Assembly: GCF_006345805.1 (NCBI RefSeq)
Contig: NC_043002.1
Coordinates: forward strand, 15,748,001-15,812,000
DNA: 64,000 nt
Direction: 5' to 3'
DNA from: Octopus sinensis
Taxonomy: Eukaryota
The position numbers were made by a program, and so were the translations under genes. Positions 6,590-59,594 of this stretch are shown here, piece by piece. The notes beneath the pieces were generated by a model. That model was not told the origin of the DNA. It did no database searches and saw only the letters and a list, made by a program, of their open reading frames with translations. Numbering within the stretch: position 1 is the first letter of the stretch; each line of letters begins with the position of its first letter.

Positions 6590-8750
6590 TCTATATATAA
6601 AATTCTTTGTCTCCCTCTCTAACTCTTTCCTGTGCATTCTCAAACAGCTCGACCAAATCAAATACAGATTTACAAGGTAATATTATCAGACCCCGTGAGT
6701 GACAACGTGTAATTTCTTTTCATTTGGATTAAAACAATATAACATTGGCACTGGTTCGCTATTGAGTGTCAAAAGTTAGAGAATAATATTTATATTGCAA
6801 TGTGATATATTGTTTCACTTTTATTCTTTCACTTTTTATTCTAATGTGATAATCCTATATTGTTTCACTTTATTCTTTCACTTTTAATTCTAACGTGACA
6901 TAATATTGTTTCACTTTATTCTTTCACTTTTAATTCTAATGTGATATAATATTGTTTCACTTTATTCTTTCACTTTTAATTCTAATGTGATATAATATTG
7001 TTTCACTTTTGATTCTAATGTTATAAGCCTATATTGGTTCACTTTATTCGTTCACTTTTGATTCTAATGTGATAAGCCTATATTGTTTCACTTTATTCTT
7101 TCACTTTTAATTTTAATGTGATATAATATTGTTTCACATTTATGTTTTCATGTTTGATTCTAATGTGATAAGCCTATCATGTTTCACTTTATTCTTTCAC
7201 TTTTGATTCTAATGTGATAAGCCTATATTGTTTCACTTTATTCTTTCACTTTTAATTCTGTGATATAATATTGTTTCACTTTATTCTTTCACTTTTGATT
7301 CTAATGTGATAAGCCTATATTGTTTCACTTTATTCTTTCACTTTTAATTCTGTGATATAATATTGTTTTACTTTATTCTTTCACTTTTAATTCTAATGTG
7401 ATATAATATTGTTTCACTTTTATTCTTTCACTTTTGATTCTAATGTGATAACACTAAATTCATCTTATTTCAATTATATTTATGAAACTTTGCCAAGATC
7501 TACAAACGCATGCAGCCGCAAGTCAAATATATTCTGAAGACACAAGGGAGATGAGACTTTCCCAAAATCAGCAAATGCATGCGGCAGCACGTCAGATGCA
7601 GTCTCAAGGGAGAAGAGAGATGAGATTTTCGCAAGATCTGCAAACGCATGCTGCAGCACATCAAGTGGGGCCTCAAGAGAGAAACGAGTTGAGACTTTCT
7701 CAATATCGGCAAAAGCTTGCTGCAGCCCGTCAGATGGAGTCTCAATACAAAAGAAAGATGAGACTTTCTCAAAATCAGCAAAGCATGCTGCAGCACTTCA
7801 AATAGAATCTCAAGCCAGAAAGGATGTGAGATTTTCCCATGATAAACAAACGAATGCTGCAGCTCATCAAATGGAGTCTCAAGAGAAAGAGGAGATGAGA
7901 CTTTCCCAAGATAAGCAATCGCTTTCTACAGCTCATCAAATGGAGTTTTGAGACATGCAGTATTTAATGCTGAATCATTAAAACAACTTGTTAATGATTA
8001 GACAGAAGTCCGATACAACAGACTACGCAAAAATTCGTTCTTCACAACTGCTGGAGCTGCTTACAGATGTGATCCATCCCATTGTTATAAAAATTATAAT
8101 TTTTGATCAAACTGGTGTGCTAAACTGTCATTTCTGCAAAGCTTTAAAATTTCCAAATGTGCTGCTCAGGCGTTAAGGTATGATTGCCAATACTACAAGC
8201 TCCTCTTCAACCTCTTTTTGAATCTTCTGAAAGGCACTTCCTTTCACTTTAATGATTTTCTGAACAATATCACACTATACAACTTTGCGTTTCAAATTAT
8301 ATCTTTTAGTGCATCAAATGAGATACTTGAACATAGATTTACGTCGACGTTCAAAATTCAATGGTAAGTCTATTACTTCATTGCTTCCATGTTATCCACA
8401 AATGAACAACAACAGTTCAACTAAATTAACTTTATGAGCGATGTAGGACAGAAACCCGAAGGAGGTGTAAAACTTCAGACAAAGTGTCGTGTTAGACACA
8501 GCGCCGACCGCAGTTTTCGGTGCATTCAAAAATCACATACCTCCTATCCCCAATTTTCCATAAGAGGTTAAGGCCTGGGATACTCGAAACGGATGCATGA
8601 CATGTCCCTTACTCGAATTAGCCCATCAATTACTCCAAAAATGCTTTGCCTTCAAAACTGCACTTTCACGTATCACCTCTTTCAACATAACTGTAATATA
8701 TATACAAAATATGCCATTTTAATCCCAAGCAACGCCGGGTATCTCTGCTA

Positions 8751-8783: not shown

Positions 8784-8880
8784 CGTGAGTGTGTGTAAGT
8801 GTGTGTGTGTTTGTGTCTGCGTCTGTGTAGAAGGTTGAAAAGGAAATCACAAGATGATATATATATTGAAATAGTCAAGG

Positions 8881-9107
8881 TAGAAAATGCTAAATTAATT
8901 TTATGAAAAAATATTTTAGTACCGGTTTCGGCCATTGAGACGTTTTCAACTGTAATATGGAATGCAATTAAATTTTGGAAAAATTAAATGAAAAGTATTT
9001 AAAAAGAATATTTGCATAGTATTGAAATACAAGGGACAGCTGAAAATGTCTCAATGATCGAAACCGGTACTGAAATATTTTTCATAAAATTATTGTAGCA
9101 TTTTCTA
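8881..9107. repeat. Inverted-repeat element (~72 bp arms) carrying degenerate hammerhead-like motifs
   Basis: 8881-8953 is an imperfect reverse complement of 9036-9107. The right arm reads cag-CTGAAAA-tgtc-tcaat-gatc-GAAA-CCGG-TA-ctg. Confidence 0.7.
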
Positions 9108-9135
9108 TATTGTCTTCTTTACATACACACACACA

Positions 9136-10268: not shown

Positions 10269-10373
<105 letters not shown>

Positions 10374-10664
10374 CTTTCTTTTATTAGCCACACAGGGCTG
10401 AATACAGAGGGGACAAATACAAATGCAGAGCTTTTCTTTTCGAGGGTGGAAAAAAATAAAAATGTAAGATTGCGATCAAAAGGGGTCGAGAGGAGGAAAA
10501 AAAAGAAAATCGTGTATCACAGAAATAATGGTGTAAACATTGATATAACAAGATTGGGTTCATCCGTGGGAAGAAAAGCCTACAGAAAAGACCACGGGAA
10601 CCCCAGTCAGGGAGGATATAAACACATGAGGTCAAAAATGCTCTCTTTCTTTCTTTTTTACGAT

Positions 10665-12932
10665 CTACAGGATCATGCTCAAAATGGTTTCGTTACTAGC
10701 ACGCACCATCTTTGCAACATTCACCCATCTTTTTTTGAATCTTTCGCGAGACAAAACTTCCCTCTCCATTCTCACCTTCCTTTTCAAGTGGTACTTGAAA
10801 AAGTTGATGAGCGATTGGCCAGAGAGGTAAGTGTTTGTCTCTAATCCTTTCGCTCGAGTCCACCACACACATTCTTTCACCATGGCCACCAGTACGATGA
10901 AAACTGCCTTGCCTTCCCGGTTGAGGGAAGGGGGCGGAGCAATTCTCACGATAGACTCGGCCGATAGGCGGATTCGTCCCACACGTGACAGCAGCCGTTC
11001 GGCATAAGCCCACAGGTCGGAAATGGTTGGACATTGCACGAGTGCGTGCAGAACGGTTTCGTCGCTCTGACCGCATCTCGGGCAAGTCGGTCCAGTGTGT
11101 CTGGAACCGTGTCTGTAGAGCTTATCCCGAACAGGTAATGCTTCTCGATAGCACTGCCAGGCCAGGGATCTTTGGTGATTGTTCATAGGTCCCGGCCCGA
11201 AAGTTGTCCTGAACAGGCGGGTCAGGTGTTCCTCGTCGACGCCCAGACTCTGCCCGAGTTCGTCGTCGCACCTCCCCTCCACTAATCCTCTATAGAATGC
11301 CTTTGTTGTGATGGAGTCGCACAAGTTCGATCCCGGACGGCAGAGTTGCTTGAGAGCAACGCGACACTCGCGGTGCCATTCGCCTAGCCTCGGTCTCTGC
11401 TTGATCCATGACTGTAGTTCGTCCAAGGAGACGAGCTGCGGGAAAGCGCGCCGCACAAAAGGCGACCACCCCTGTTCACCGTTGTCTATGAAGCGCCGGA
11501 GATGTCGCAGTCTCAGCGCATGTCTGCGCATCATAAACCACGGCATGCCTAGCCCTCCATTTAGCGGGTGTTGGCAGCAAATGGATCGCCTAACCATCGG
11601 AACGTTTCCCTTCCACAAGAAGCGGAAGAGTATGCGTTCCAGTTTGGTGATGGTAGGGTCGGGACAAGGCACGACGGTCAGACGATACTCGATGACGGAT
11701 GCGATGTACGCGTTCGCCACCTCCGCCCGACCTTTTAGGGATAGCTTTCTCTCAGTCCATTTCTGGGTGAGAGTAGCCACCCTAGTCGTTATCTCGCCCC
11801 AGTTCTTCTCCATTTGGAGGTCCGGACCGAACCAGACCCCGAGCAATTTAACCGGTCCGTCCGTCCAGCGTCCCACGATGGGGACGCTGTTGGACGGCAT
11901 GGGCTTGCTTCTCCAGGTGCCGAGCCGCAAGCCCACTGACTTTTCCCGGTTAATTTTTGCTCCCGTTACCGCTTCGTATTCTTTCAGTGTCTCGCCGACC
12001 AGCTCGATGTGCTCGTAGCTCGACACTATGACGGTGACGTCATCCGCGTATGCAGACACGCTCCTCCCGCATCCCAGCTCTCGTGGGATGCCCCTCAGCG
12101 TCGCCAGTTTCCGCAGTAGTGGCTCAAGAGTCAGTACATACAGCAGCGAACGCATGATACGAACCGAACGCATGATGTTAAAAGGTCTGGATAGATGACC
12201 ATTTACGCGAACTACTGAGCGGATGCCGCTGTATAAGGCAGCGATCCAACCGCGGAAAACTGGACCGAAACCAGCCGCTTTGAGGACAGTCTCCAAGTAG
12301 TGATGGTCTACCCTATCGAAGGCTTTTGATTGATCCAAATTGATCAGTGCCCCACCCATGCCAGGATTTTTAACTACCCTGTCTATGATGTAGCGCATCA
12401 GATGGAGGTTGTCATGAATACTTCTACCCGGCACGGCGCATGTTTGCGCCTTGTCGATTAGTTTCTTGATGACAAGCGCCAACCTCTCGGCTAACACCTT
12501 GGCCAAAATTTTCAAATCTGCGTTGAGCAGAGTGATGGGCCTGAAATTATCTATGACGTCCCCCTTGTTTGGGTCTTTCTTGATCAGTTCCACTGCTCCT
12601 CGCTTTACAAAAGCAGGAATACTCCCGTTCTTCTGCCAGTTGCAGTAGACAGCTGCCAAGACGCCTCCAAACAAGTCTGGCATATGAAAATAAAATTCGT
12701 AGGGCAGACCATCCAAGCCTGGTGACTTGTCTCTCGCGCAGCCTACCTTCGCATCCTGTACGTCCGCAGCTGTGATAGGCTTTTCACAGAGACTCCACCT
12801 CCCTGCTGAGAGTCGTGGCAAGGCATGCAGGTAGGCACTAAAGTCCACTCTGCTTTCTGACTCACCACTTGTCCCAAACAGTTGGGTGAAGTGTTGTTGA
12901 AAAACCCCACACATCCTTTTAGGCTCGAGCAA
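10665..12932 (-). pseudogene. ORF2 reverse transcriptase portion (frameshifted from the endonuclease part)
   Basis: Motifs KSPGLDGLPYEFY, NFRPITLLNADLKILAK, LDQSKAFDRVDH, YADD and C-terminal CPRC..ETVLHALVQC. The expected QGCPLSP motif is missing. Confidence 0.92.
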
Positions 12933-12948
12933 TTCGCGCCCCTTTCAT

Positions 12949-14094
12949 CTATAAGAGACTTGATGGTGGCTCTGTTGCCTCGTTGCGCGTCTCCACCACT
13001 CGGGCCTCTTGGGCGGCTCCAACTCCTTCGTTCCTCAGAGCACGCATCCTAGCTCTGACAACGCATCCCTCGTGTTTGGCGTTGAGGTGTTGGTCGAGGG
13101 CCAATCTCGCCGCCAGTACGTTGGACGCGATGCCAGTTCTAAGTGCCTCTTCTAAAACCTTAACTAAATCTCCCTCTATTCTATTTCGGTCTAATGCTAG
13201 GGCTCTACTGTATCTGACTGATTCTGCTTTAATCGCTTTTTTTAGGGCATACCACCATCTGTTGTTGATGATGGTACCCGTCAAAGCTCTCTTAACTAAT
13301 GTGCTGATCCGGTCCCTGTAAACCTGTCGTGCTGTAAAAGACGCGTTCAGTTTCCAGTAACCAGGACCCTGCCTATGTGTCTTATCTAAGTCAAGTGTAC
13401 AAGTCACAAACTTGTGATCTGTGTAACTGACTATATGAAATTGTGGACGACCTACACTATTTTTATCTATTGTCCTACAGAATACTCTATCTAAGTATGA
13501 TATGGACGACCCGATGCGGTTACTCCATGTCCACATTGGCACATTCGGGTGGTCCAGTCGGTACCTGTCAGACAGTTGGAAACGTCTGAGCAGGTCTTTG
13601 AGGCATTTGCATCCCCTTCTATTGCTATCTCTGCCCACGTAGTCTAGATGCGTGTCCAGGGTGGCATTCCAATCCCCCACTAAAAGTAAAGGACGAGACG
13701 TTCTCATGAAAGACTCTAGACGTCGAAAGAAATCTGGTCGGCCTGTTAAGGACGGAGCATAAACTGCTATCAGTCGAAAAGCACACTCATTGCTGCCATC
13801 GACATCCAAAACGACCAGCCTACCCTCCGGGTCTAGGAAATTTGCTCTTACTTTGAGATCCAGACTCTTCCGGATAAGCACCGCGGTGCCACCTCCGCCC
13901 ATTCTCGGTAGACACGGAGAAAAATAAATGTTGAAATGTGTACCGAAAATGTGCTGGAGTGCCCGCAAGCTGTGGAGTCTGGTCTCACTGATGGCTATGA
14001 TATTCAGATTTAGTGACTTGATGTCATTTAACAGGTAGCCTTGTTTCCAAGGCGACCCCAAGCCACGTACATTTATACTACCTATTCTGAGCAT
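12949..14094 (-). pseudogene. ORF2 apurinic-endonuclease-like domain
   Basis: MLRIGSINVRGL, ISETRL, AVYAPS, VGDWNA, SYLDRV, TDHK, and GPGYWKLN (typical of L1/Tx1 elements). Likely ATG at 14094. Confidence 0.92.
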
Positions 14095-14136
14095 GTTCCG
14101 ATAAAAGTGCAAAAAAGGAAAAGGAGAGAGAAAAGG

Positions 14137-16372
14137 TTACTTGTTTTTCGAAAGTTCTTTGTCTTTCACCTCACGGTCTTCTTCTATGAGGCTTTTATAC
14201 AGTTTTTTCGATGAGTACTTTTGAAATCTCCCTACTGCATCAGGGTAAAGAGATTTCAGGGTGCTGTATGTGTTCTGTGTCACGTGTTATTTTTAATGTG
14301 TTGTGGTGGTTTTTGTGTGGGGTGGTTACTTGTTTTTATGTCGTTTTCAGTAATGTTAGTGTTTGACCTAATGTGTTCCATTAGGTCGTGGTTGTTTGTG
14401 TTAATGGCTGTCAACATTTTTGGGGGGTTTGATGATGGTGTGTTTGTGTTGATGTGTGTGTTTTCTGTGGATGTTTTTGTTTCGGGAGTGGTGTATCTTC
14501 CCGCTTTGTTTGTTATTTTTTCTTTTCTTTTTTTTCCCCTTTTTCTTCTCCCCCTGTGGCTATTTGCCAATCTTCCGTGTCTTCTTCGTCTAATGACAGA
14601 TCAGACGAATCGGAGTCTGGAAGAGGGAAAGTATTGGGGTATATTGTCGACTGTGTTGGTTTTGTTGTTGGTGTTGGTTGGTGAGCGTTTGGTTGTGGTG
14701 TATGCGGTTTTGGATGTGGGGTTTGGGTATTTTGTGTTTGAGTGATTGTGGGTATTGTTGTGTTGTTTAGGGTCTCAATTTTGTGGGGATTTGGAGTTGT
14801 AATTGTTTCTTCATTTTTGCTGGGTGTCTTTTTGGCAGATGTCCTTGGTTTGGGAGTTGGTATATTCTTGGTTGTTGTTGTTGGTGATGCTGCTTCTGTT
14901 CTTGGTGCTGCAGTTGGTGTGGTTGTTTGTTTGGTGAGGTTTGTTCCTGCAAAAAGTGGTGTGGGTAGTAAACCTTGTTTATTTGTTTTTGTTTCCGGCT
15001 GCTGTTGTTGTTGCTGTTGTTTTCTTGCGGCAGATTTGCAGTCTTTTTTTAGGTGTTGCTCACTGCCGCATATGTAGCAACGTGGTCTTCTGCCATCGAC
15101 GACCACATATAACTTGTGGTCGTCTGATACACATATCTGTGTGGGTATTTTTTTTATATCTTCATGATGTATATGTAGAAGAAATTCTACTTTTTTTCCC
15201 ACCCAGTTTTTATGGCTTGTAAAGTCTATGGCTTGTAAAGGCCTTATGCGTAAAAATGGCGAATTATACTATTTTGGAAACCACAGTCACAGAGACTGTG
15301 GTTTCCAAAATAGTATAATTCGCCATTTTTACGCATAAGGCCTTTACAAGCCATGGACTATTGGCTATTTTGGGGACATTGTTTAGAGTGATCTTAGTCA
15401 CTTTCTGTCCCCGATAGCTTGGTGTAAGTTGGAGTTCATTTGAGTGAAGAGTTAGCGTTGAGAAATGTCTAGCTAACTCTTCGGTGTAGAAAACAACTTG
15501 TATGTGGGCAAATTTGTTCCACCAGGTTACATATTCTTTGTGATCCCAGATGGGTTTCAAGGACTTCTCTATTTTGCTTGTGTTGGCCTTCTCTGGGATT
15601 TTTGTTTTTTTGTTAACTATTTTATAAATGATTGTTCGTCTTTTTTCATTTTCCAAAATGTTTTCTGGTATGTTTATATTTACTATACCTTCTGATTCTG
15701 TTATTTTGATGTTCGTGTCCTGTATTTGTTGAGCCGTAAAGTATATTGTTGTTGTTTTTCTTTAATCGCCTCAGCGAAATTTGTTGTTGTTTTGTTATTG
15801 TTGTTGCTTGTGGTGATGTTGTTGTTGGCTGCAGTTTGTAAAATTGGTGTGTTTGGTTCGATCGTGCAAGTAGGAAGGGGTGGAAAATTGCCTGCGTACT
15901 TTAGTCCTGCACTAGGGCAAATTTCGACATTTCGTTTGCTTGTCGTCGTTATTTTTTCACTTGTTGGTGATGGAGTGAGCAGTGGTTGAAGGGAATTGTT
16001 GTTGTCGTCGTTGTTGTTGTTGTTGTTGTTGTTGTTATTGTCGTTCTTGGTGACGGCGGTGGTGTTGGTAGTATTAGTAGCATTGACGGCACGGTCTTTG
16101 GTGGCGGTGATGGTGATGTTGGTGTTGTTATTGGTGGCGATATCTTTAGTAGGGATAGCAGTTTTAGTAGCAGATTCTGCCATGGTGTTGGTGGTGGTGG
16201 TGGACTCACTGATGGTGTTGACGGTGCTTGGCCTTGCGACCTTTGTTTTGTATTTGTTGCTGTTGATGGTGGTGGAGTTGTCAGGTTCGGCGTATGCTAA
16301 CAGAGCATCCTGTTTTTCTGTTTCTGCGTCACGCTTGACTTGCACCGCAGCCTCGTGGTGGCCAGTGGCCAT
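14137..16372 (-). pseudogene. ORF1 (gag-like nucleic-acid-binding protein), broken into several frames
   Basis: ORF pieces 15701-16402, 15264-15656, 14513-15202 and 14280-14570. CCHC knuckle CYICGSEQHLKKDC; T/N/Q/P-rich low-complexity linkers. Confidence 0.8.
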
Positions 16373-16589
16373 TTTGGAAATAAAATGGCTAAATGAAACC
16401 ACGAAGGCTATGAGAATTTTTTCTTTTAAATTTTGCCCACAAGGGGCAAAATTTTGTGTCGATATTTAACAAAGGTTTACAGTGGATGTTGTTGCACAAC
16501 TTTTAAGCACAAAATGTTTGTCAATATACACTTTTAAATAGTCAAAATAAATGATTACCTTCGGAGCTGAAACGACATCACATCCGTCA

Positions 16590-16709
<120 letters not shown>

Positions 16710-17239: not shown

Positions 17240-18100
17240 TTTCCAAAGTTATCAATCATTTATCCACTTCCGCGACCCATCATTCCAGGATGGTTGTGGC
17301 AGTAGAGTTCTCAGGTCATCTGGCGTAGGGGTCTGTCAGAAAGAATTGTCATTGCATTTATCAACTAGATTCTCAAACATGAGAAACTGAATCTAAGAAT
17401 GCCATCGAAACATCTCACCCTTGTTCTACCCCTTGGTTCCTTGCCAGTTGGCTTGGCTTCATGAAATCTATCTTGTATTTCTTTCAAGTGACATTCTAAT
17501 CACAAGTCTACATTACAGGAGCAGTGGCTTCTCAGTGCCGAGAAGTAGGGGCTCGATCTGGGGGAGTCTCCCTGGTCTTCGAACTACGCGCCACGTCTAG
17601 GAACGGTGCGTCAGAGATTCATCGGAGGAACCTCATTTCGTACTCTTATGTCCACGATCGAACTCTTTTGAGTGCCATCCAAATTCGTAACCATAGGTGT
17701 GGATGGGCATAAAAGCTTCAATATATTCCACAACAAAGAGGCAGCGAACTGGCAGAAACGTTAGCATGCCGGGCGAAATGCGTAGCCGTGTTTCGTCTGC
17801 CGTTGGGTTCTGAGTTCAAACTCCACCGAGGTCGACTTTGCCTTTCATCCTTTCAGGGTCGATTAAATAAGTACCAGTTACGCACTGAGGTCGATGTAAT
17901 CGATTTAATCCGTTTTTGTCTGTCCTTGTTTGTTCCCTCTGTGTTTAGCCCCTTGTGGGTAGTAAAGAAATATATATTCCACAACAAAGAAGTGCTTTCT
18001 TCTTCTTCAATATGGTGTAACAGAAATAATTTCTGCCATTTTCAGGCAAACATATCGGCGTATAACGCAATAAATCTCATGCATTTGGACAAGATAGTAT
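17240..18100 (-). pseudogene. Decayed RTE-type LINE 3' fragment, interrupted by a SINE
   Basis: Minus strand 17600-17720 gives FMPIHTYGYEFW...RVRSW...EMRFLR, resembling the RTE-clade LTYGxExW...EMRFLR C-terminal region. Boundaries approximate. Confidence 0.55.
17740..17971 (+). mobile_element. tRNA-derived SINE, family B (Tx1-like tail), with 19-bp TSD
   Basis: TSD atatattccacaacaaaga at 17721-17739 and 17972-17990. B box gagttcaaa. Central gcctttcatcctttc..ggtcgat..aagtaccag resembles the MetaSINE domain (from memory). Tail ends aaagaaata. Confidence 0.92.
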
Positions 18101-18663
18101 GACGGGAACAGATAAGAGTGGAAGAGTTAGTTTGACAGCATAAAAGCAGTTAGGACAATAAATCAAAATGACAGTAAATTTCTGTATCATTTAAATGGTA
18201 TGGAACACCGTAATATATTTAAAACTCCTCTTCATAAATACACCTATCTTTAGCAAGAAGATCAAATCAGTCCATCATCATACCAGCAAGGAATCACAAA
18301 CTGGTAAAAGAACTCATTGAATCACATCTCTCATATAGCTTGCTCAAAGACAAGGTATTGATCCGATTCATATATTTGGTACCATCTTGATAGAAAAATG
18401 CATGAAAATAATTGCAAATCACATCAGTTTCAGAGTTGCGGAATGTAAACACAATTGGCAGGAATATGGATAGACATTGCTCAATCTTTCATTGATAATT
18501 TAATCAAAGCTACGTCTAATCAGTTTAATACACTGATATTATAGAAAGGACTAGCTGCAAAGTAATGAGATAATGTATTTTACTGTAAAGATATACCTAG
18601 CCAATTTAAACCTGGGACATATACTCGTGTATGTAAGTGTGAGGGTATGTACACATACAAAAA

Positions 18664-18892
18664 GGCGGCGAGCTGGCAGAAACGTTAGCACGCTGGGCGA
18701 AATGCTTAGCGGTATTTCGTCTGCGTTACGTTGTGAGTTCAAATTCCGCCGTGGTCGACTTTACCTTTCATCCTTTCGGGGTCGATAAATTAAGTACCAG
18801 TTACGCACTGGGTCGATGTAATCGACTTAATACCTATGTCTGTCCTTGTTTGTCCCCTCTGTGTTTAGCCCCTTGTGGGTAATAAAGAAATA
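18664..18892 (+). mobile_element. SINE family B with 16-bp TSD
   Basis: TSD ggtatgtacacataca at 18644-18659 and 18893-18908. Full head ggcggcgagctggcagaaacgttagc and tail tttgtcccctctgtgtttagccccttgtgggtaataaagaaata. Confidence 0.93.
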
Positions 18893-18949
18893 GGTATGTA
18901 CACATACATGCATACTTCTAATTTAAAAGCAGCAGAAATTTAACAAAAG

Positions 18950-28878: not shown

Positions 28879-29749
28879 TCCAACTGAATATTTCCTTCAT
28901 TGTAAGGATTTTACTGACTCAGATCGAGAAATCCTTTTGCAAAAAGTAACATCTGAGTACAAAGGTGGTTGGCGGTGGATATGGTTGTTGTTTTATCGTT
29001 CGTTCTTTACTTTTCTCCTTAACTATCTCTTTAAGATTACACAAAAGTAGCTACCACCATTAATAGAATAAAAACTTATGTAGCGGTCGTATCTTCAGTT
29101 ATCGAAAGTTTTTGTCTCACTAATAGCAATTTACAGGATTGACGTAAGCTGGTGTCTGAAACCATCGAGAGGACATTCTCGTTGATGCTTCTCGGTTGTT
29201 TATTCAATAAAAGGAATTTCTAATCACATGTCTTAACTGACCGATGTATCCATATTATCTCTTATTATAAAAGGCAGATTTTATCTGCCTCCCTTTGTAT
29301 CTTATAGAAATCTACAATATAGGATTTCTTCAATTACAATTTGCCTAGCATTTTTAAGAGTAGAATGCATCGGGTCGTGACAGGTCCACTTTTTAAAATT
29401 TCAACCCCAATTAAGCAAAATTTAGAGAAAACTCACATTGTGGTGTATGAGTCAAATGCTTCTCTTAGTGTGGGATACAGCACACGCAAACGCACACACA
29501 CAGTGTGCAACGAATAAAGTGAAACTAATTCACTTTCTGTAGTGAGTGACTATTTCACTCTACATTCCCACTTCCACTTTACACACATAGACACGCAAAT
29601 ATATAAATAAAATTGTAAGCTAACGTGTGTGTGTGCGTGTGTGTGAGTGTGTGCGTGTGTGTGCGTGTGTGTGCGTGTGTGTGTGTGTTAGGATGCGTGT
29701 GTGTGTGTGTGTGTGCGTGTGCGTGAGTGTGTGACCGGAAAGGTTTTTA

Positions 29750-30588
29750 CGACGAATATAAGATCTAAAGTTATCTCTAAGAAAAAGAAAGATCGCCCAA
29801 AAGTGTATATAGATATTTAAATGTATTTATATATTCATATATGCACACATGGATGTATAACGTGTGTGTATATATTTCCATAGAGGTAACCATTCACTCC
29901 ATACAAAGTTTTTTAGGACGAAAATAAGATCTAAAGTTATCTCTAAGAAAAAGAAAGATCGCCCAAAAGTGTATATAGATATTTAAATGTATTTATATAT
30001 TCATCTATACACACATGTATGTATAATGTGCGTGTATATATTTCCATAGAGGTAACCATTCACTCCATACAAAGTTTTTTAGGACGAAAATAGATCTAAA
30101 GTTATCTCTAGAAAAAGAAAGATCGCCCAAAAGTGTATATAGATATTTAAATGTATTTATATATTCATCTATACACACATGTATGTATAATGTGCGTGTA
30201 TATATTTCCATAGAGGTAACCATTCACTCCATACAAAGTTTTTTAGGACGAAAATAAGATCTAAAGTTATCTCTAAGAAAAAGAAAGATCGCCCAAAAGT
30301 GTATATAGATATTTAAATGTATTTATATATTCATCTATACACACATGTATGTATAATGTGTGTGTATATATTTCCATAGATGTAACCTTTCACTCCATAC
30401 AAAGTTTTTTAGGACGAATATAAGATCTAAAGTTATCTCTAAGAAAAATTAAGATCGCCCAAAAGTGTATATAGATATTTAAATGTATTTATATATTCAT
30501 CTATACACACATGTATGTATAATGTGCGTGTATATATTTCCATAGAGGTAACCATTCAATCCATACAAAGTTTTTTAGGACGAAAATA
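29750..30588. repeat. ~166-bp tandem repeat, 5 copies, inside Helitron
   Basis: gacgaa(a/t)ataagatctaaagttatctc recurs at ~29750, 29917, 30083, 30247 and 30413, with a partial start at 30579. Confidence 0.92.
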
Positions 30589-41339: not shown

Positions 41340-42192
41340 TCTAAAGTTTTCGCATGAAGCCACCGTTGGGCCGTCGGGCACTCTGCTTTATTAACCCCGA
41401 AAATATGAAAGGCAAAATCGATTCCGGCAGTATTTGAAATCACAACGTACTGCCAGGAATACCGCTAAGCATTTTGCTGGCTGTGCTTAAACATTCTGCT
41501 GGATCCCAAACCTTCCAGTAAATAATATTTTCAACTCTAGGCACAAGTCCTGAAATTTTGGGAGAGGGGGTCAGTCGATTAGATCGACCCCAGTGTTCAA
41601 CTGGTACTTAATTTATCGACCTCGAAACGATGAAAGGCAAAATCGACCTCGGCGGAATTTGAAATCAGAACGTAAAGACAGAAGAAATACCTATTTCTTT
41701 ACTACCAACAAGGAGCTACACACAGAGAGGACAAACAAGGACAGACAAACGGATTAAGTCGATTATATCGACCCCAGTGCGTAACTGGTACTTATTTAAT
41801 CGACCCCAAAGGATAAAAGGCAATGTCGACATCGGCCGAATTTGATCTCAGAACGTAACGGCAGACGAAATAACGCTAAGCATTTCGCCCGACGTGCCAA
41901 CGTTCCTGTCAGCTCACCGCCTTCATTCTGCAAATTATTAACTTTCGATTTAGCTCCGCTTGATCTCACTAGCAAGGAAATTATATATCATTATGAGAGC
42001 CCGAAAGTTTGGGGAAGGGGGCTAGTCGATTAAACCGAAACCAGTACGCAACTAGTACTTAATTTATCGACCCCGAAAGGATGAAAGGCAAAGTCGACCT
42101 CGGCCGAATTTGAACTCAGAATGTAACGGCAGACGAAATACGACTACGCATTTCGCCTGGCGTGCTAACGTTTCTGCCAGCTCGCCGCCTTT
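41340..42192 (-). mobile_element. Cluster of SINE family B copies, including one nested pair
   Basis: Copies at ~41340-41515 (degenerate), 41530-41923 (nested, junction gaaatacc|tatttcttt) and 42000-42192. Confidence 0.85.
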
Positions 42193-43113
42193 TCAGTAAA
42201 TAATAATGGCAATATCCCTACTAATATAAACATGTAGAACGGCAATAACTCATTTAAAGTACTATTTGCAACAACAGTGAGTAAAAGCGCAACAATGTAA
42301 TTAGCAACAGCAGCAGAACCAATTACAACAGTAAGGCCAAATGCACAGCCATCAAGTATAGCGGCAGAAATAACACAAACGTTAACGGCCGAAGTCATAA
42401 CACAAATACCTTCATATCAACATTGCCTAAAACACTTAAATAAATTGAAATATAATTAAAAACATCTGGAGAGTGGTAATTAGGATAACAAAAGAAATTA
42501 TTACAGCTGCATCTATTATTATTATTTTAAAGGGACGTATAACGGCAGGATGAATATTTACAACAACAGCATGTATATTTGTGTTTGGTTGCAGGGTTTT
42601 ATGACATGTGGAGAAATGTCTTGAAATATTTAGTCACATGCCTTTCTATTCCGTGTTCAAATCACGTCGAATTTAATTCTTCGTTTTATACTTCTGGAGT
42701 AGTGAACTAATATACCAGTCTCACACTGTCCTAATTTCAATTTCGATATATATATGTAATTCGGTGAAAGTGCGTTGCCTTGTGGAATGGTTTTGCACTA
42801 ACGATCAGAAAATTGTAGTTTCGACCCCCGGGCCGTAAGATGCGTTGTGGTGAAACAAAACGTCGCTCCAATCTGCTCAGCTGTTAATGATTAACGCTAT
42901 TACGGACAGGCGTCCCATCAGAGGAAATCTTGTGATCTCGTTCAATTCTACGCCATGAAAACAGGATAATGGAACCGATAAGTCCTAGGCCTCAAAACAG
43001 TACAGAAATTTCAAAGGGGTTCACTATATATAAATCATCTCAAAATATGAATGAAGTTAGAATTTTTTTTTTCCTTTTATACAAGGCTAGCAATACTGAA
43101 GGAAGAGAAATTC

Positions 43114-43542
43114 GGATCTTTTCGGTTTGAACGGCAGTTTTTAAAACAATTTCCACGTAACTAAACACTTTTAAACTTCGTATACTGGTAGAATGTGTTT
43201 ATAAAACATATTTTTCTCTTGGCTTTATTGAGAAAATTCTATAGCTTGTAAGATATTTGTTGTTTTTTTTCCTCATCAATTTCTGCAATTTCACCCAATC
43301 AATGACGTCTGTTCAAGGTGAAAACATTCTGTGCCGTATGAATATGTCCCTCGTTTAAGAAACAGATTGGGTTTATTTACATTTGTGAAGAAAAAAGATA
43401 CTTTTCCCCCCACCGCTAACCCTAACCATCCCTAACCCTAAAACAGATTGAAATACAATAGATCGATACTAGGGTCATAATTATGGGTGACAATTACATA
43501 TGACACCGCTAGAAAAAACTGCCATTCAAACCGAAAAGATCC
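43114..43542. mobile_element. MITE with GGATC...GATCC TIRs (second full copy)
   Basis: TIRs ggatcttttcggtttgaacggcagttttt / aaaaaactgccattcaaaccgaaaagatcc; flanks gagaaattc / gagaaagtc (9 bp, 1 mismatch). Inserted in an old family B SINE. Confidence 0.9.
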
Positions 43543-45571
43543 GAGAAAGTCAACTACATCGACTTAGTGCTCAAATAGTATTTATTTTATCGACCCGGAA
43601 GGGATGAATTGCATGGTCAAACCGGATGAAATTTGTACTTAGGTCGTAAAGAGACTGAAGAAACGCCGCTTGGTATTATCCCAATGCACTAATGCTTGTG
43701 TCAGCTGACCGTCTTTATGAATGAAATTATAACGCCAAATAAAATGTATCCAGAAAATTATAATTCTCAAACTTTAGAATTTGTGGGAGGTGCGCAATGG
43801 TGAATTGTTATCACATGTCACATCCCGAAAATGCACAAACTGACTGATTGACATAAAACTAATATTAGAAGCTAGAAGAGAGAATATGTGTATAATAGGC
43901 CAGGATATCCATTTCCATAAAGTAAAAAAAAAAAACTGACGAGTTGTTCCCAACTACAACGCTTTTTTAAGTGAGGTCTCTTAGATCTAGTGCTAATAAG
44001 TAATATCAAATATTTCTTTCAATGCAATAATCCAAATATGGCAAATGTCGATAAAGAAAGAAATAATATAACCCGCTGTCAGCCTATAAACTATTTCACA
44101 GAAATACAGTACGTAGGGTTTGACAAATATTCTCGTGACATGGAATCCGTTGACCAATGAGATTATCCCAGAAGTTACAAGACAAAAACCCTTCCTGCGC
44201 TCGCTTTAAAGCGAAAATACAAAATGAAGTGAGACAATTCCATCTAGATTCGCCGTTCGAAAGAATTTGGATAATCTATATTATCCAAATTGGACAGCTG
44301 AGAAAAGAGTATTCAGAGACGCCTACCGAATGAAAAACTATTTGTGTCATCCATTTCATGCAGTTGGTCACGAATTAAAATTTCATTATTCTTCAATATA
44401 TGCATCGAATGGACGCTGCCTAGTGGTTCCGATGATGGGCTCGCGGTCAAAATGCCATAGGTTCGATTCCTATGCACGACATCACGTGTCTCTAAGTAAG
44501 GTACACATTGTACGTTACTTGATGTACACAATGGAAAATTAATGCCAAACAAGCGCTGGTTCATATTCCTCTCCCCCTCCAGTTGTCCCATTTTTAATAT
44601 TCCGCCGGTCACAGTTTAAAGTGGTTAGAGAGTGTCTATATATGCATCTGAAAAGTTAACAACAGCGTGGTGCTTGATACCAAGTCATATTGACATCTGT
44701 TCCCTACTAACAAGCACCTCAAAAATTAGCAAGACCATTGTGATTGATACTAAGTCACATTCCTTTGCAAGCGACGCCTTGGCTACGAATCCTGACTAAC
44801 GACTTTAAATTTTTACAAAAATGACAGAACTTAGTCAACCGTGAATTCAAATATATCAATACTAATTAAATATAGAATGTAGTGGAGAGTAAATCTCTAA
44901 GCAAAACCTAAAATAATGCTATGAAATACTGAAAGAATTGAGAAGTCATATTTTAGACCTACTCTTGTGGTTCTGTGGTAGGTAGCGACACCGTTTATAC
45001 TGAATAATGAATAGAAATGAATAATGAGTAATGAAGAGAAACGTATTCAAGAAACAGATGCAATAAATTCTATTAACTGGGCCTCACATTAGGAAATGGA
45101 AAATATTATGTAGCACGATAATCCTTTGTCATATGCACAGGGTACGAGACATTGAAGAAAGCGAGGCTAGTCTATTATATCAACCTCGGGGTTCTACTGG
45201 TACATATTTCATCGACCCCTAAAACATGTAAGTCAAAGACAACCACGACAGAAACTATACTCAGGACGTAAAGCCGGAAGAAATGCCGCTAAGAATTTCG
45301 GCCAGTGCCCTCATCATCCTTAATTATCCTTTGTACTATTGGCACAAGGCCAGAAAAACTTAGGGAAGGATATTAGTCAAATCAACGCCAGAAAAACGTG
45401 TGGAAGGATATCAGTCTACGGACATATATTTTATTGGCCCCGAAAGGATGAAAAGCGAAATCGACCTTTGCAGAATTGAGCACAGAACTTAAAACCGGAA
45501 TAAATACCACTAAGACTTTCGTCTGTTGCTGTAATCATTTTGCCATTTTACCGCATCAGCAACATTTATAA

Positions 45572-45841
45572 TGTCAACTTAACGTGACAGACCCGTAAAG
45601 GGAATCACACCACCGCTATTTAGCCCTAGGAAGCATCGACGCTTCCTGTCGGCCTTGACACATTTCCTGTGTCCTTATATTTGCGAAGGGTGGTAGCCTT
45701 AGCTGGTGGGGGTGCTTGCCTCCCCTTCGCAAATATAAGGACAGAGGAAATGTGTCAAAGCCGACAGGAAGCGTCGATGCTTCCTAGGGCTAAATAGCGG
45801 TGGTGTGATTCCCTTTACGGGACTGTCACGTTAAGTTGACA
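45572..45841. mobile_element. Fold-back (palindromic) MITE-like element with TGT...ACA ends
   Basis: Near-perfect ~118-bp inverted arms (tgtcaacttaacgtgacag... / ...ctgtcacgttaagttgaca) around a ~32-bp spacer. Confidence 0.8.
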
Positions 45842-46884
45842 GTATACAGCCACTCTATCGCTCCACCACCGCTCATGTCTCTCTGAGACATTTAGAAATT
45901 CAATATTTCTAACATTTATAATCCTTTCTATTAAATAAAATATCCTTGTAAGGCCATTTTATAGTGATGAGAATCCGTCTTGACCAGTAGATGTGATCTA
46001 TGCCTAAAGGACAAGAACAAAATGGCAACAATGGAGATCAAAATGATGAGGAAGCATTTACGCAGATTATTGGCTGGCTAGGAATAGCTGCCAAATCCCT
46101 CTAAGATCTCAACCACTTGTCTTTCGAATGGCTTATAAACAAGTATTTAATACAATCATATATATACCATGCCGTTAAGAAAGCAGAAATAAATGTAATA
46201 TTCCTGGCAGCATTGAATCAAGGATAATCTCTTGCTGAACAGTTTAAACAACAAGAGTAACCCGACTAAGATATGTACAGACAATTACAGTCATAATAAC
46301 AATGGCAAGCAAATCGGATGAGCCCTTATTCTGTCGCTCGTTCGGCCGCCTTTAAGTTCTGATTTGAAATCCCACCGTGGTCGATTTTGCTTTTCATCCT
46401 TTCGGAGTCGATCAAGCAAGTACAAGTCAAGTATCGGGGTGGATGTGATCGTCTTACCCCTTACCCGCAAATTTCAGGCCTTGAGCCTATAACAGAAAGG
46501 CTTATTCTGTCTTTCGACCTTCTAGAAATGGTAGTCAGCATTCCACAAATATGATTCAACCGTTTTTGTTGTCTCTTTCCTTTCCGCTACTTTCTTTATA
46601 TTTATTTATTTATTTGACATGGGAAGGATGAGCATGTGATAATAATGCATTCTCGGATTTCATTAATAGATAAAAAGAAAATGATATTTATAGGCAGGTG
46701 ATGCCTTCGATGTCTGCTATAACAATTACGCTCAAGCAGTTTTATGGCCAAGGGCTAAACGGTAACAACTGAAGTACCACTAACAACTGGAGCACCAACA
46801 TCATTGACAACAATACAATAAGTATGGACATCGAGAATACTTGCTGCACCAGCAGTGTGCAGATGTTTAATTAAAGAACTGTAG

Positions 46885-48596: not shown

Positions 48597-49030
48597 AAAA
48601 ACACTCCAATTTTATCAACTAGAAAATCACGGAAAAAATAAAGACACAGTATTCTTATTTCATCTAAACAATAGTAAAATTGTGCTAATGCATTTAACGC
48701 ACTGGACGAAAGTACATAAAATAAGATTTTCACTCTCGTAACGAGTAGAGTTATTTTCATCGCTCCAAATCCTGATAACGAAAATATGCAGCCCGAAACT
48801 CTCTCAAAATTTTAATTAAATGACATCATGTAAATATGGAATGCATCGTCACGTAAGGGAGATGATAATCTAGGAAGTGTTACAAGCTTATTGGATTTCT
48901 TCCGGAAAGAATAGTTTTAATGATCCTTACATTTTAGTGCCGGGTAGCTTGCACAATGATATGTAATTTCCTCGTTCAGCCTTGTTAGATCAAACGGAGC
49001 TAAATCGAAAGATGATAATTTGCCGAATGA

Positions 49031-49580
49031 AGGCGATGAGCTGGCAGAACCGTTAGCATGCCCGGCGAAATGCTTAGCGGTATTTCGTCAGCCGTTACGT
49101 TCTGAGTTCAAATTCCGTTCAAAGGTCGACTTTGCCTTTCATCCTTTCGGCGTCGATAGATTAAGTACCAGTTACGCACTGGGTCAATATGATCGACTTA
49201 ATCCGTCTGTCCTTGTTAGTCCTCTCTGTGTTTCGCCCCTTGTGGGTAGTAAAGAAATAGGTATTTCGTCTGCCGCTACGTTCTGAGTTCAAATTCCACC
49301 GATGTCGACTTTGCCTTCCATCCTTTCGGGGTCGATTAAATAAGTACCAGTTACGCACTGGGGTCGATATGATAGACTTAATCCGTTTGTCCTCTCTGTG
49401 TTTAGACCCTAGTGGGTAGTAAAGAAACAGGTATGTCATCTGTTTTACGTACTGAATTCAAATTCCGCCGAGGTCGACTTTGCCTCTCATCCACTCGGGG
49501 TAGATAAATTAAGTACTGAGGTCGATATAATTGACTTGCTCCCCCCACCAAATTTCGGGCCTTGTGCCTAGAGTAACAAA
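49031..49580 (+). mobile_element. Triple nested/tandem SINE family B
   Basis: One head at 49031, then junctions aaagaaata|ggtatttcgtc (49259) and aaagaaaca|ggtatgtcatc (49429). The last unit has the older tail (gccttgtgcctagagta). Confidence 0.9.
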
Positions 49581-49978
49581 GAATAATTTTTAGAATGATT
49601 TCAAAGCAGCGAGAATGTAAACATAACGTATCTTCAGTTTCAGTACTTTTAATATACACGTTTGAATCTGCCTTGTTTTGTTTGCTGAACATGGCAGATT
49701 CGAATGATTATATTAACCGCAGCTCATTTCCGTCCGCAGAGAACACTTCTTCTACTTAAACGATGTGTGATCGAGATTCACCGGTATAAAGGGATTTCGA
49801 TACATTCCGATGTTTCAACTGCTGTGTATTTTCTCGCTTAAACGTACACCGTCGGACCATTCATACTAACAAGTACATGAGCTCTCGAATATAAAAAACG
49901 AGCAAAGTATTTCTTGATGCGAGCTGAATAGTGTGCAGCGAAACAATAATGTATTTTCTTATTCTTGACACCTTGCGT

Positions 49979-56394: not shown

Positions 56395-57499
56395 TGAGAA
56401 ATTACATCAAATTCATTGTTAGGTGCAGACGTGACCGTGTGCAGAGGCGCAAAATGCAGTTGAGTGATAAGAAACATGGTTCCAAACTACATGGTTCCGA
56501 TTTCGCTCCCACTGAGTAGCACCTTGTGGATAGATTTCGTAGATGCAACCTGAAAGAAACCCATCATATAATATATGTGTGTGTGCTTGTGTGTCTCTGT
56601 GTGTCTTTGTGCCTGTCTTTGTTCTCCACAAGCACTTGTCAACCGATGTTGCTGTGTTTACGTTCCTGCAAAATAGCATTTCGGCAAAAGAAACGACAGA
56701 ATATGCACCGGGCTTAAAAAATGAAGTACTATGGGCAATAAATTCGACAAGAAATCCCTCAAGGCTTTGCCCCAGCATGGCCGTAATCAAATGACTGACA
56801 CAAGTAAAAAGATGCAAAATTTTCTGACATAAATTTCTGCTGTAAATTACATATAAGTATTTATGCATCTCATAATAGTTACTTTGGAGCATAATTCCTA
56901 ATTTAATTAACTGATCTTAATTCAGGTTAGCTATGATCGGATGTCTAATAATATATTAGTTTGAGTTATAAGAACAAGTAACATCACTAATTATTGAACT
57001 TATCAATTTGTCTCATGTAAGAACTTAAAATGCCCGAATTCTATTTTTTTTAATCGTTAAAATATAAATATACTTCAGAGCTCTGAAGCTCATTGTGTTT
57101 TGTAACGGGAAATTCTCCTGAAGAAAGGAAATTTTCCCCTGAAGAAAATCACAGTTTTTCTCTTTAAACATACTCAACTATCAATAGAAATTTAACAAAT
57201 AAAACTGCTTCCATTGCATAATTCGAATTTCGTTTGTTTTTGCGATACCTTTGCAAATCAATGAATAGTTTACACACTGTCTGTAGCGTACTTCAGACTA
57301 GATTTTTGCTTCGGAAGTGACACGAGTAAGTGGTAATGATAAGCCGCAATAACGGCGAAATACTTATCTCTCATTTCGTATGTCTAGCACTAAATTATAT
57401 TTATTTTTCTTATTTAACACAATACGTTTACAAAGGGATGTTTCACAGAAAAAAATGTACAACTTCCGATGTTTACCTACTTATACACATTCATTTTGT

Positions 57500-57556
<57 letters not shown>

Positions 57557-58465
57557 ACATTTATTGTCGCATATTCTGGTACTGATGGCATGCATATATC
57601 CTCGTTAAAATCGGTATGAATTTTAACTCCGAATACACGCATACATACACCACACACACACACACACATTTACGACGTGCTTCCACATGGTTTCCGTTTC
57701 TCAGGTGGCATTGGTCGGCCCAGTGCTATAGTACAGAACACATCTCTAATGTTCCCCATAATTGGGCTTAACCTGAAACAATGTGGATGCAAATCTAGAT
57801 TCTTAAACACAAAAGCACGCACACGTATGTGTGTGCGCGCGCGCGCATGGATTTAGGTTGGGATTAGAACTCATTAGACCTCAATATATATATATGCTTC
57901 ACGATAAAGCGTTAGGTGAGTAGAGAGTGTAAATAGGAAAATAAAATCATGGCAAGGAAACAGGAATTATGCTCCAAAGTAACTATTATGAGATGCATAA
58001 ATACTTATGTGTAATTTACAGCAGAAATTTATAGCAGAAAATTTTGCATCTTTTTACTTGTGTCAGTCATTTGATTACGGCCATGCTGGGGCAAAGCCTT
58101 GAGGGATTTCTTGTCAAATTTATTGCCCACAGTACTTCATTTTTAAGCCCGGTGCATATTCTGTCGTTATTTTTGCCGAAATGCTATTTTGCAGGAACGT
58201 AAACACAGCAACATTGGTTGACAAGTGCTTGTGGAGAACAAAGACAGGCACAAAGACACACAGAGACACACACGCACACACACATACATTATATGATAGG
58301 TTTCTTTCAGGTTGCATCTACGAAATCCATTCACAAGGTGCTGTGCAGTGGGAGCGAATTTGGAACCATACGGTTTGGAACCAAGTTTCTTATCACTCAA
58401 CTGCATTTTGCGCCTCATCACACAGTCGCGTTTGCCCCTACCAATGAATTTGATGTAATTTCTCA
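56395..58465. repeat. ~505-bp inverted duplication (old family A SINE plus flanks) around a ~1.06-kb spacer
   Basis: 56395-56899 is a close reverse complement of 57962-58465, including non-SINE sequence on both sides of the SINE. Confidence 0.9.
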
Positions 58466-58545
58466 CATCGTTTCTTTAAATATATTGACTCACACACACA
58501 CAAACACACGCATTTTTTCATACACTGACGCACACATGCTTCTTA

Positions 58546-58962
58546 TTTCTTTATTGCTCACAAGGGGCTAAACATAGAGGGGACAAACAAGGACAGACAA
58601 AGGGATTAAGTCGATTACATCGAATCCAGTGCGTAATTGGTACTTAATTTATCGACCCCGAATGGATGAAAGGCAAAGTCGACTTCGACGGAATTCGAAC
58701 TCAGAACGTAGCGGCAGACGAAATACCTATTTCTTTACTACCCGCAAGGGGCTAAACATAGAGGGGACAAACAAGGACAGACAAGCGGATTAAGTAGATT
58801 ACATCGACTCCAGTGCGTAACTGGTACTTATTTAATCGACCCCGAAAGGATGAAAGGCAAACTCGACTTCGACGGAATTTGAACTCAGAACATAACGGCA
58901 GACGAAATACAGCTACGCATTTCGCCCGGCGTGCTAACGTTTCTGCTAGCTCGCCGCCTTCA
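58546..58962 (-). mobile_element. Nested/tandem dimer of SINE family B (both units with Tx1-like tail)
   Basis: Junction gacgaaatacc|tatttctttac at 58717-58738; single head ending ctcgccgcctt at ~58960. Confidence 0.9.
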
Positions 58963-59594
58963 ATACACACACATTCTTCTATATATTCATACATATAGGG
59001 GGTGAAAACTGTTAACAAATTAAGAGATAAGACTGTCTGCTTTTATAAATAATTAGAAACAGGATCAGAATTTTCAGTCAAGTAAAACCCTTTGCGTTTT
59101 AGCAAGTAAAAATAATACATTGGAGAATTAAGTTTGTTATCTCTAACTGGAATGCAGTGGTCTAGGAGAGAAATACCATTGCAAGATAAGGTGTGCTGAA
59201 GCTATGGCTGACCTGTGGCTGAACTCACTAACAACATCAGCAGTGTACAGGAACAATGGCACAATAGGACAACGTGGATGTATGCGTGTGTATGTGTGTT
59301 TGCAGACACACATACATACAGACAGACAGATATACAGACACACATTACATTACATTTACATGGGATTAGTTTACAATTGAAGGCTGCCCGACTTGTACTA
59401 CCACGACCAACACCATTCTCGCTGCCACCGCCGCCACCACCACCATTTCTGCAGTTGCTGCTGCCGCTGCTATTTCGTTATATGTCGCGCGGGCACCGTT
59501 TCAAAACATTATGAAAATGCACGATGCAATGTTGCACGAAAATAAATGTTATTACATCGCTCTGAATGTCAACAATGACACATGATGCTGCGAC

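Follow-up and report, generated by a model that had tools for sequence, protein, structure and literature searches.

The stretch of Octopus sinensis DNA analyzed here (64,000 nt; hereafter, the window) is repetitive animal DNA with many microsatellites and a GC content of 31–50% per 2-kb window. It contains a SINE family with a length of approximately 232 nt, represented by 11 near-complete units. Seven units end in a Tx1-type tail, and a head-only profile retrieved seven strong heads and one decayed head from the window. Two Tx1-tailed copies are solo insertions on the forward strand with target site duplications (TSDs) of variable length: S17 (17739..17972), with a perfect TSD of 18–19 nt (17721–17739 / 17972–17990), and S18 (18663..18892), with a perfect TSD of 16 nt (18644–18659 / 18893–18908). 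The others belong to three arrays. The trimer T, on the forward strand, consists of a full SINE with head, core, and Tx1-type tail (T1, 49031..49259), a unit that is headless from position 50 and has a Tx1-type tail with a 16-nt deletion (T2, 49260..49429), and a third unit that is headless from position 50 and has an older-type tail (T3, 49430..49587). On the reverse strand, the dimer D consists of a full SINE with a Tx1-type tail (D1, 41692..41922) and a unit that is headless from position 50 with an older-type tail (D2, 41528..41691), and the dimer E of a full SINE (E1, 58728..58959) and a unit that is headless from position 50 (E2, 58544..58727), both with Tx1-type tails.

An A-box-like motif was found at position 13 of the SINE in four of five loci and a B-box-like motif at positions 76–77 in all five. 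ARAGORN predicted no tRNA genes, and no Rfam match covered the SINE. A conserved hairpin in the head (positions 33–62, e.g., 18694–18723 of the window; z −2.7) lies between the two motifs. Its closing pair (45:50) co-varies from U-G to G-C or G-U in three of the seven heads, and all three heads with 45G carry C or T at position 50. The tail RNA folded no better than shuffled sequences (z −1.0 and 0.26). The core presumably resembles the Deu/Nin domain. OR2 and OR1 of octopus were named as CORE SINEs (PMC4758252, PMC4824008), and three core motifs of the present SINE gave no match in the supplementary files of these papers that were searched.

A LINE that is the putative partner of the SINE occupies 10373–16594 on the reverse strand. 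Its ORF1 is in three pieces and carries a zinc knuckle (Pfam; just below the cut-off). An APE endonuclease (Pfam; 12949–14136, reverse strand) lies in a frame separate from that of the reverse transcriptase (RT; Pfam; 10665–12944, reverse strand), ORF2 also has a zf-RVT domain (Pfam), and the reading frames are broken. The best PDB matches were L1 ORF2p, the best Atlas cluster was the 'Transposon TX1 149 kDa protein family' (score 0.97), and the nearest named relative of the RT was from Argonauta hians (64% identity). At the level of sequence, a Tx1-like identity of the LINE is supported. The SINE tail was 86% identical to the last 43 nt of the LINE (E 4e-8), which supports a probable origin of the tail from the LINE 3′ end. 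An earlier note on this DNA had called the tail Tx1-like, and this description holds by way of the LINE, which is Tx1-like by its domains and cluster and whose 3′ end the tail matches.

The LINE is a single, full-length copy that lies within a (TATC)n/(GATA)n microsatellite with repeats on both sides (10269–10372 and 16594–16709; 26 and 29 repeats). Some Tx1 relatives likewise target microsatellites (PMC4494074), and the LINE at 10269–16709 may belong to a microsatellite-targeting Tx1 family like Kibi/Koshi. A hairpin in its 5′ UTR (16424–16451, reverse strand) has a core of 12 nt that also occurs within the SINE tail (a non-significant match, E 0.26), and a near-perfect inverted repeat (137 nt, 96%) lies at 15223–15359, inside ORF1 near a frame break. 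The protein P0009, filed under a Herbaspirillum MAG, was 63% identical to ORF2 of this LINE and probably stems from animal DNA that was binned with bacterial sequence.

Older members of the SINE family, diverged by 25–35%, were observed at 45115–45554, 41385–41505, and 43543–43714 (all reverse strand), 46326–46505, and 42601–42728. They cluster in 41–46 kb, two of them tail-to-head, which suggests a long-standing local accumulation of SINEs. No TSDs were found for the old copies at 27.2–27.4 kb and 46.3–46.5 kb. Other repeats of the window include MITE-like foldback elements (45567–45846, 88% over 285 nt; 8873–9115, 74% over 247 nt), an inverted pair (56395–56899 / 57962–58465; 505 nt, 94% identical, approximately 1 kb apart) whose family has further copies at 2.3, 5.7, 23.0, and 36.5 kb, and tandem arrays at 29739–30588 (166-nt units, 96% match), 6807–7450 (46–49/92-nt units), and 7482–7946 (69-nt units).

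Tail-to-head junctions at position 50

The window was scanned with a 17-nt pattern composed of the tail end and GGTAT, with 100 shuffles as the baseline. Exact matches were obtained at 49251–49267 and 49421–49437 (forward strand) and at 41684–41700 and 58720–58736 (reverse strand), corresponding to the junctions 49259|49260, 49429|49430, 41692|41691, and 58728|58727. A fifth match, with one mismatch, was located at a solo copy (18884–18900). The shuffles gave no match, a trivial baseline as the copies are homologous. The scan and the unit model bore out the earlier report of four tail-to-head junctions at three loci, and each of the four downstream units started at model position 50, in agreement with the reported internal position approximately 50 nt into the head. 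The same report had placed an older tail on the downstream unit at two loci, and the tail of these two units (49430–49587 and 41691–41528) was indeed of a different type and more diverged. Four of the seven Tx1-type tails thus abut position 50 of another unit, while three enter unique DNA (at 17972, 18892, and 58544).

The junction is blunt and lies at the same end point as the solo tails, as a 3′ junction made through target-primed reverse transcription (TPRT) would be. It coincides with the 3′ edge of the 4-nt loop (46–49) of the conserved head hairpin, downstream of the A-box-like motif (13) and upstream of the B-box-like motif (77). The A-box-like motif is confined to the first unit of each array, and the inner units have no A box.

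Each array has one complete head, and the head-only profile detected no orphaned head directly upstream of T1, D1, or E1 (none in three arrays). The outer TSD pair of E (58965..58980 and 58528..58543, reverse strand) encloses both units, is 14/16 identical (p 0.001–0.003), and starts with AGAAG. That of T is weak, with the right copy at 49583..49598 matching the left copy at 49015–49030 in 13/16 positions (null p ~0.02), and D has a TSD pair only within a larger composite (14/15). After a plain nested insertion, the head of the host should remain upstream of the inserted element together with an inner TSD, and this classical signature was not found at the three arrays. The missing second head alone is not decisive, as the cDNA could anneal to positions 50–65 of the host and join it without a seam. 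A published model has the cDNA anneal to its target at 5′ junctions (PMC2912911).

Searches beyond the window contributed little to the count of junctions. A scan of GTDB genomes for the tail motif gave one locus; this was a chance match within a bacterial reading frame, and the similarity did not extend beyond it. The antisense peptide across the E junction gave no candidates of similar length in the protein search. It matched 10 representatives; extended to a profile of four rows, it matched 10 longer proteins, six of which were named O. bimaculoides. Of the 16 distinct antisense-matching proteins, 13 were inspected, and none of these gave a clear junction reading; P0126 showed a core-then-tail order that is compatible with a decayed junction and is unusable for counts. 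Antisense SINE sequence appeared as exons in O. bimaculoides gene models (P0122–P0124 and P0131–P0133), e.g., in a kelch-like protein, representing either exonization or an annotation artefact.

Relationships within and between the arrays

The 5′ flank of the trimer (48952..49030) is common to the dimer at 41.9 kb, where a copy of it (41923..41995, reverse strand) lies in front of D1. The two flanks (48952–49030 and 41995–41923) were 81% identical over 79 aligned nt (E 2e-16; shuffle p = 0.001), and no further copies were found elsewhere in the window. A SINE tail as the identity of this flank was ruled out (p = 0.54), and the 3′ flanks of T and D showed a weak, gappy similarity (p = 0.03) that was rejected as homology. 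The body of T2 is nearest to D1, with five derived non-CpG states in common (93, 127, 130, 159, and 197), or three when polarity was set by the majority (p = 0.0008). T3 and D2 have 63T/65T in common and are near neighbors, their cores being 13% apart, whereas they are 16–18% apart from their upstream neighbors. Because T and D share the 5′ flank and private variants, the junctions of the trimer and of the 41.7-kb dimer are, as judged from these sequences, not independent, and the two older-tail cases represent one event.

Upstream of the flank copy, D adjoins an older-tail SINE (S42, 41996..42190, reverse strand) whose tail is cut short at the start of the shared flank. S42, the flank, D1, and D2 form a 660-nt composite (41513–42205, reverse strand) with its own TSD (left, 42191..42205; right, 41513..41527; 14/15 identical; null p ~0.003), which runs from the head of the older SINE through the tail of D2. 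The old tail of the dimer completes this element. The one clear nesting of a SINE in a SINE seen here lies near position 200 rather than 50. In the simplest reading, T would be the original site, and D would have arisen when the flank and array were copied into an older SINE at a distance of 7 kb. The mosaic composition of the units points to conversion or exchange.

These results do not bear out the earlier claim that the SINE repeatedly inserts into itself at this nucleotide: both older-tail cases come from one locus, the outer TSDs flank whole arrays, and second heads are absent from all three arrays. The two older-tail units, on which the earlier argument against simple tandem duplication relied, count once.

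The Tx1-tailed units within an array were related more closely than expected. Derived non-CpG states in common numbered four for E1/E2 (expected 0.7, p = 0.0007) and three for T1/T2 (expected 0.2, p = 0.0006), both p values being per pair; the simulated maximum over 21 pairs reached four in 0.13% and three in 4% of the simulations. The within-array sum was reached by 3 of 105 disjoint pair sets (p = 0.029). The sole variant linking headless units of different loci was 66C (T2 and E2), which was not significant (p = 0.36). Trees of 13 cores and of the seven Tx1-tailed units, from which the fragments 45330–45530 and 43540–43725 were left out and in which the relic 42601–42728 was not included, had no supported branch (0/10 and 0/4 starred, respectively). 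The check suggested in the earlier note, that nested units be phylogenetically distinct from their hosts, was run on the Tx1-tailed pairs and gave the opposite result, with the units being closer to each other than expected.

The common variants within arrays and the tandem arrays reported by TRF for E (2.0 × 184 nt at 91%) and T (2.5 × 169 nt at 82%) would be expected if monomers had been duplicated in tandem at each locus by local events alone. However, the breakpoint is not set by any microhomology, and the best match between tail and head is 5 nt and predicts a different junction. Position 50 of E1 itself is not G, and the older-type last units of T and D are too far from the new-type first units to be their duplicates. 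Between E1 and E2, 17 of 184 sites are different, a level close to the average of the family, and the 127/130 marker separates E1 from E2 as it does T1 from T2. Simple duplication therefore does not fit E, and conversion must be invoked. Local duplication alone is largely refuted, and we consider it very improbable.

Target sites and the origin of the junctions

The TSD of S18 starts with GGTAT, as reported earlier for the solo copy near 18664. This was the case for one of the three unique-flank SINE insertions; the TSD of E starts with AGAAG, and that of S17 has an AT-rich start with no GGTAT. With a background of 0.00065 per site, one in three corresponds to P = 0.002. None of the unique-flank 3′ ends at 17972 and 58544 and that of the LINE is followed by GGTAT. 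TAT was observed among the first bases in two of the three unique targets and in the (TATC)n target of the LINE; by itself, a TAT is too frequent to be informative (P = 0.12 for one in three). The proposed GGTAT target is present at one unique-flank insertion and lacking at the other two SINE targets and at that of the LINE. Under a criterion for self-targeting of more than 20% of independent insertions (PMC4494074), the four of seven tails entering position 50 are non-independent, and the unique-flank sites with GGTAT are one of three. A weak bias toward GGTAT or toward the hairpin loop is plausible, and one solo copy can neither establish a GGTAT bias nor separate the endonuclease from RNA pairing as its source.

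The earlier note attributed the junctions to a Tx1 endonuclease that prefers a GGTAT/TAT-like site. On this reading, insertion would have occurred repeatedly at position 50, with a seamless join hiding the second head. It would account for the TSD of S18, for the TAT in the targets mentioned above, and for the retention of GGTAT in all four headless units (which are non-independent) versus two of the seven heads. Tx1 families often prefer particular targets, including other transposons, and bring SINEs along (PMC4494074), and the annealing model cited above provides for the seamless join (PMC2912911). If the join was seamless, the upstream unit should carry host-type bases across the length of a TSD (15–19 nt in the window), i.e., at positions 50–65. 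The bases were of the wrong type at three of the four junctions: D1 and T2 have the new-type 63C/65G where D2 and T3 have the old-type 63T/65T, and the head of E1 has 45G/50T whereas E2 begins with G. T1|T2 was compatible (15/16 identical). Together with the single origin of the older-tail cases, the AGAAG and AT-rich starts at E and S17, and the commonness of TAT, these mismatches make repeated endonuclease-directed nesting unlikely, and the interpretation in the earlier note is partly supported. An inverted repeat of 6–8 bp around three junctions was noticed post hoc and was not counted as evidence.

The GGTAT at S18 can also be accounted for without a specific endonuclease, if SINE transcripts from loci with a junction stopped a few bases beyond it, so that their GGUAU(UU) 3′ end paired with the nicked primer strand at matching sites and thereby favored position 50 of sister copies. 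The unit has TTT after GGTA (position 53), and the E dimer, whose tail end is a variant, has a TSD starting with AGAA, as at head position 17. However, three T residues are a poor terminator for RNA polymerase III, only one solo copy has the GGTAT start, and S17 has no such match. In addition, the AGAA match is weak, as 20% of background 5-mers are present at some position of the SINE, and the type test at positions 50–65 failed at three of the four junctions for this reading as well. In SART1Bm, accuracy is raised by pairing of the RNA 3′ end, and the same source cites such pairing for R1Bm (PMC7265360). RNA-guided self-targeting is, in our estimate, improbable to the same degree as endonuclease-directed nesting, and so is its feedback version, in which each junction would breed further junctions, the multimers would be mobile, and the SINE's own copies would serve as safe landing sites.

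The place of the junction on the 3′ side of the 4-nt loop, at its edge, in a hairpin that is conserved and whose closing pair co-varies in three of seven heads, would also suit template jumping or RNA joining. In this case, an RNA fragment that begins at position 50 after a cut at the loop would be reverse transcribed first, and the enzyme would jump to the 3′ end of a second SINE RNA. Mixed subfamilies, the missing head, and the single outer TSD all fit, and template jumping is an established step (PMC2912911). Against it, no solo headless copy starting at position 50 with a unique flank was found among the 11 near-complete units, and S18, the shared flank, and the similarity within arrays are left unexplained. 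We regard this reading as less probable still than either form of self-targeting.

The explanation that we favor, with modest confidence, is that the arrays are single-headed SINE multimers, which go back to one or two founding insertions at GGTAT and in which later read-through units were copied as wholes. In the founding step, a Tx1-tailed SINE would have been inserted by Tx1-driven TPRT at GGTAT in the head of another copy, a site that would correspond to the 3′ edge of the hairpin loop. RNA polymerase III starting from the head of the inner copy, and meeting no T-run, would continue into the remainder of the host and yield a single-headed RNA in which the junction is fixed. The partner of the last tail would then reinsert this multimer RNA as a whole, leaving a single outer TSD. 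Local DNA-level copying, unequal exchange, and conversion may later have altered the number of units, mixed their variants, and produced D. The recurrence of the same nucleotide would follow from inheritance of the junction.

Array E itself lacks a run of four T, the first one being 503 nt downstream; the T4 runs that arrays T and D now contain are probably the result of decay. A founding double-headed locus was not seen in the window. The GGTAT TSD of S18 requires a target bias or RNA pairing to be added to the multimer model, and endonuclease-directed nesting and RNA guiding can coexist with it. Junctions of a new tail with a new unit and those of a new tail with an old unit may have separate origins, which would mean recurrence at position 50.

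Comparison with known systems and implications

The closest architecture is that of the TSD-(SINE)n-TSD multimers of the blood clam Scapharca broughtonii, a bivalve mollusc, in which likewise the first head is complete, later units are cut at one head position, and an outer TSD pair is present (PMC11481361). Arrays of two to three units were the norm in the five genomes examined there (PMC11481361). The inner units of Scapharca lose part of the tail, whereas those of octopus keep a complete LINE-derived tail, and in the octopus arrays, unlike those of Scapharca, the last unit can belong to another subfamily (PMC11481361). SINE-derived satellites (sSats) and multimeric SINEs of squamates are likewise composed of tandem partial units with a longer terminal unit and within-array homogenization; sSats reach up to 1000 units, whereas the octopus arrays, which resemble the shortest of them, have two to three units and are dispersed and flanked by TSDs (PMC10702118).

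SINEU-3 and Tx1-Mar of crocodilians and Tx1 of Xenopus provide a parallel for a Tx1-driven SINE, transposon targets, and tandem copies (PMC4494074). According to that source, 90% of SINEU-3 copies (313/347) are in a foreign DNA transposon, whereas the putative target here is the SINE itself; SINEU-3 tandems have a TSD between full copies, whereas the octopus arrays are without a second head, and the motif occurs at one of three unique sites (PMC4494074). R1Bm and SART1Bm, in which target-like bases at the RNA 3′ end aid priming, are the model for the RNA-guided reading; however, they are autonomous site-specific LINEs with host targets (28S and telomere) and with pairing demonstrated by assay, and pairing in octopus is hypothetical (PMC7265360). 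For R1 of Drosophila, identical junctions in tandem-like copies were read as the amplification of one original event (PMC2718515). For O. vulgaris, 17 tRNA-Deu SINE families and 80 L1-Tx1 families were listed (PMC13282606). No description of a position-50 junction or of a self-targeting octopus SINE was found in a literature search of titles and abstract starts, with most subscription papers outside the search.

Nested repeats that share an identical junction should not be counted as separate insertion events, and the junctions found here do not show ongoing self-targeting. If self-targeting were true, whether by the endonuclease or by RNA pairing, this would be a SINE with itself as the target, and the origin of SINE arrays would be testable on thousands of natural copies. 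On the multimer reading that we favor, the window contains an octopus SINE–Tx1 pair that forms single-headed multimers moving as units, which is a modest point and a known kind of arrangement. Such unit-wise movement would affect repeat libraries and age estimates in genomes where SINEs account for 11.6% of the DNA (PMC13282606).
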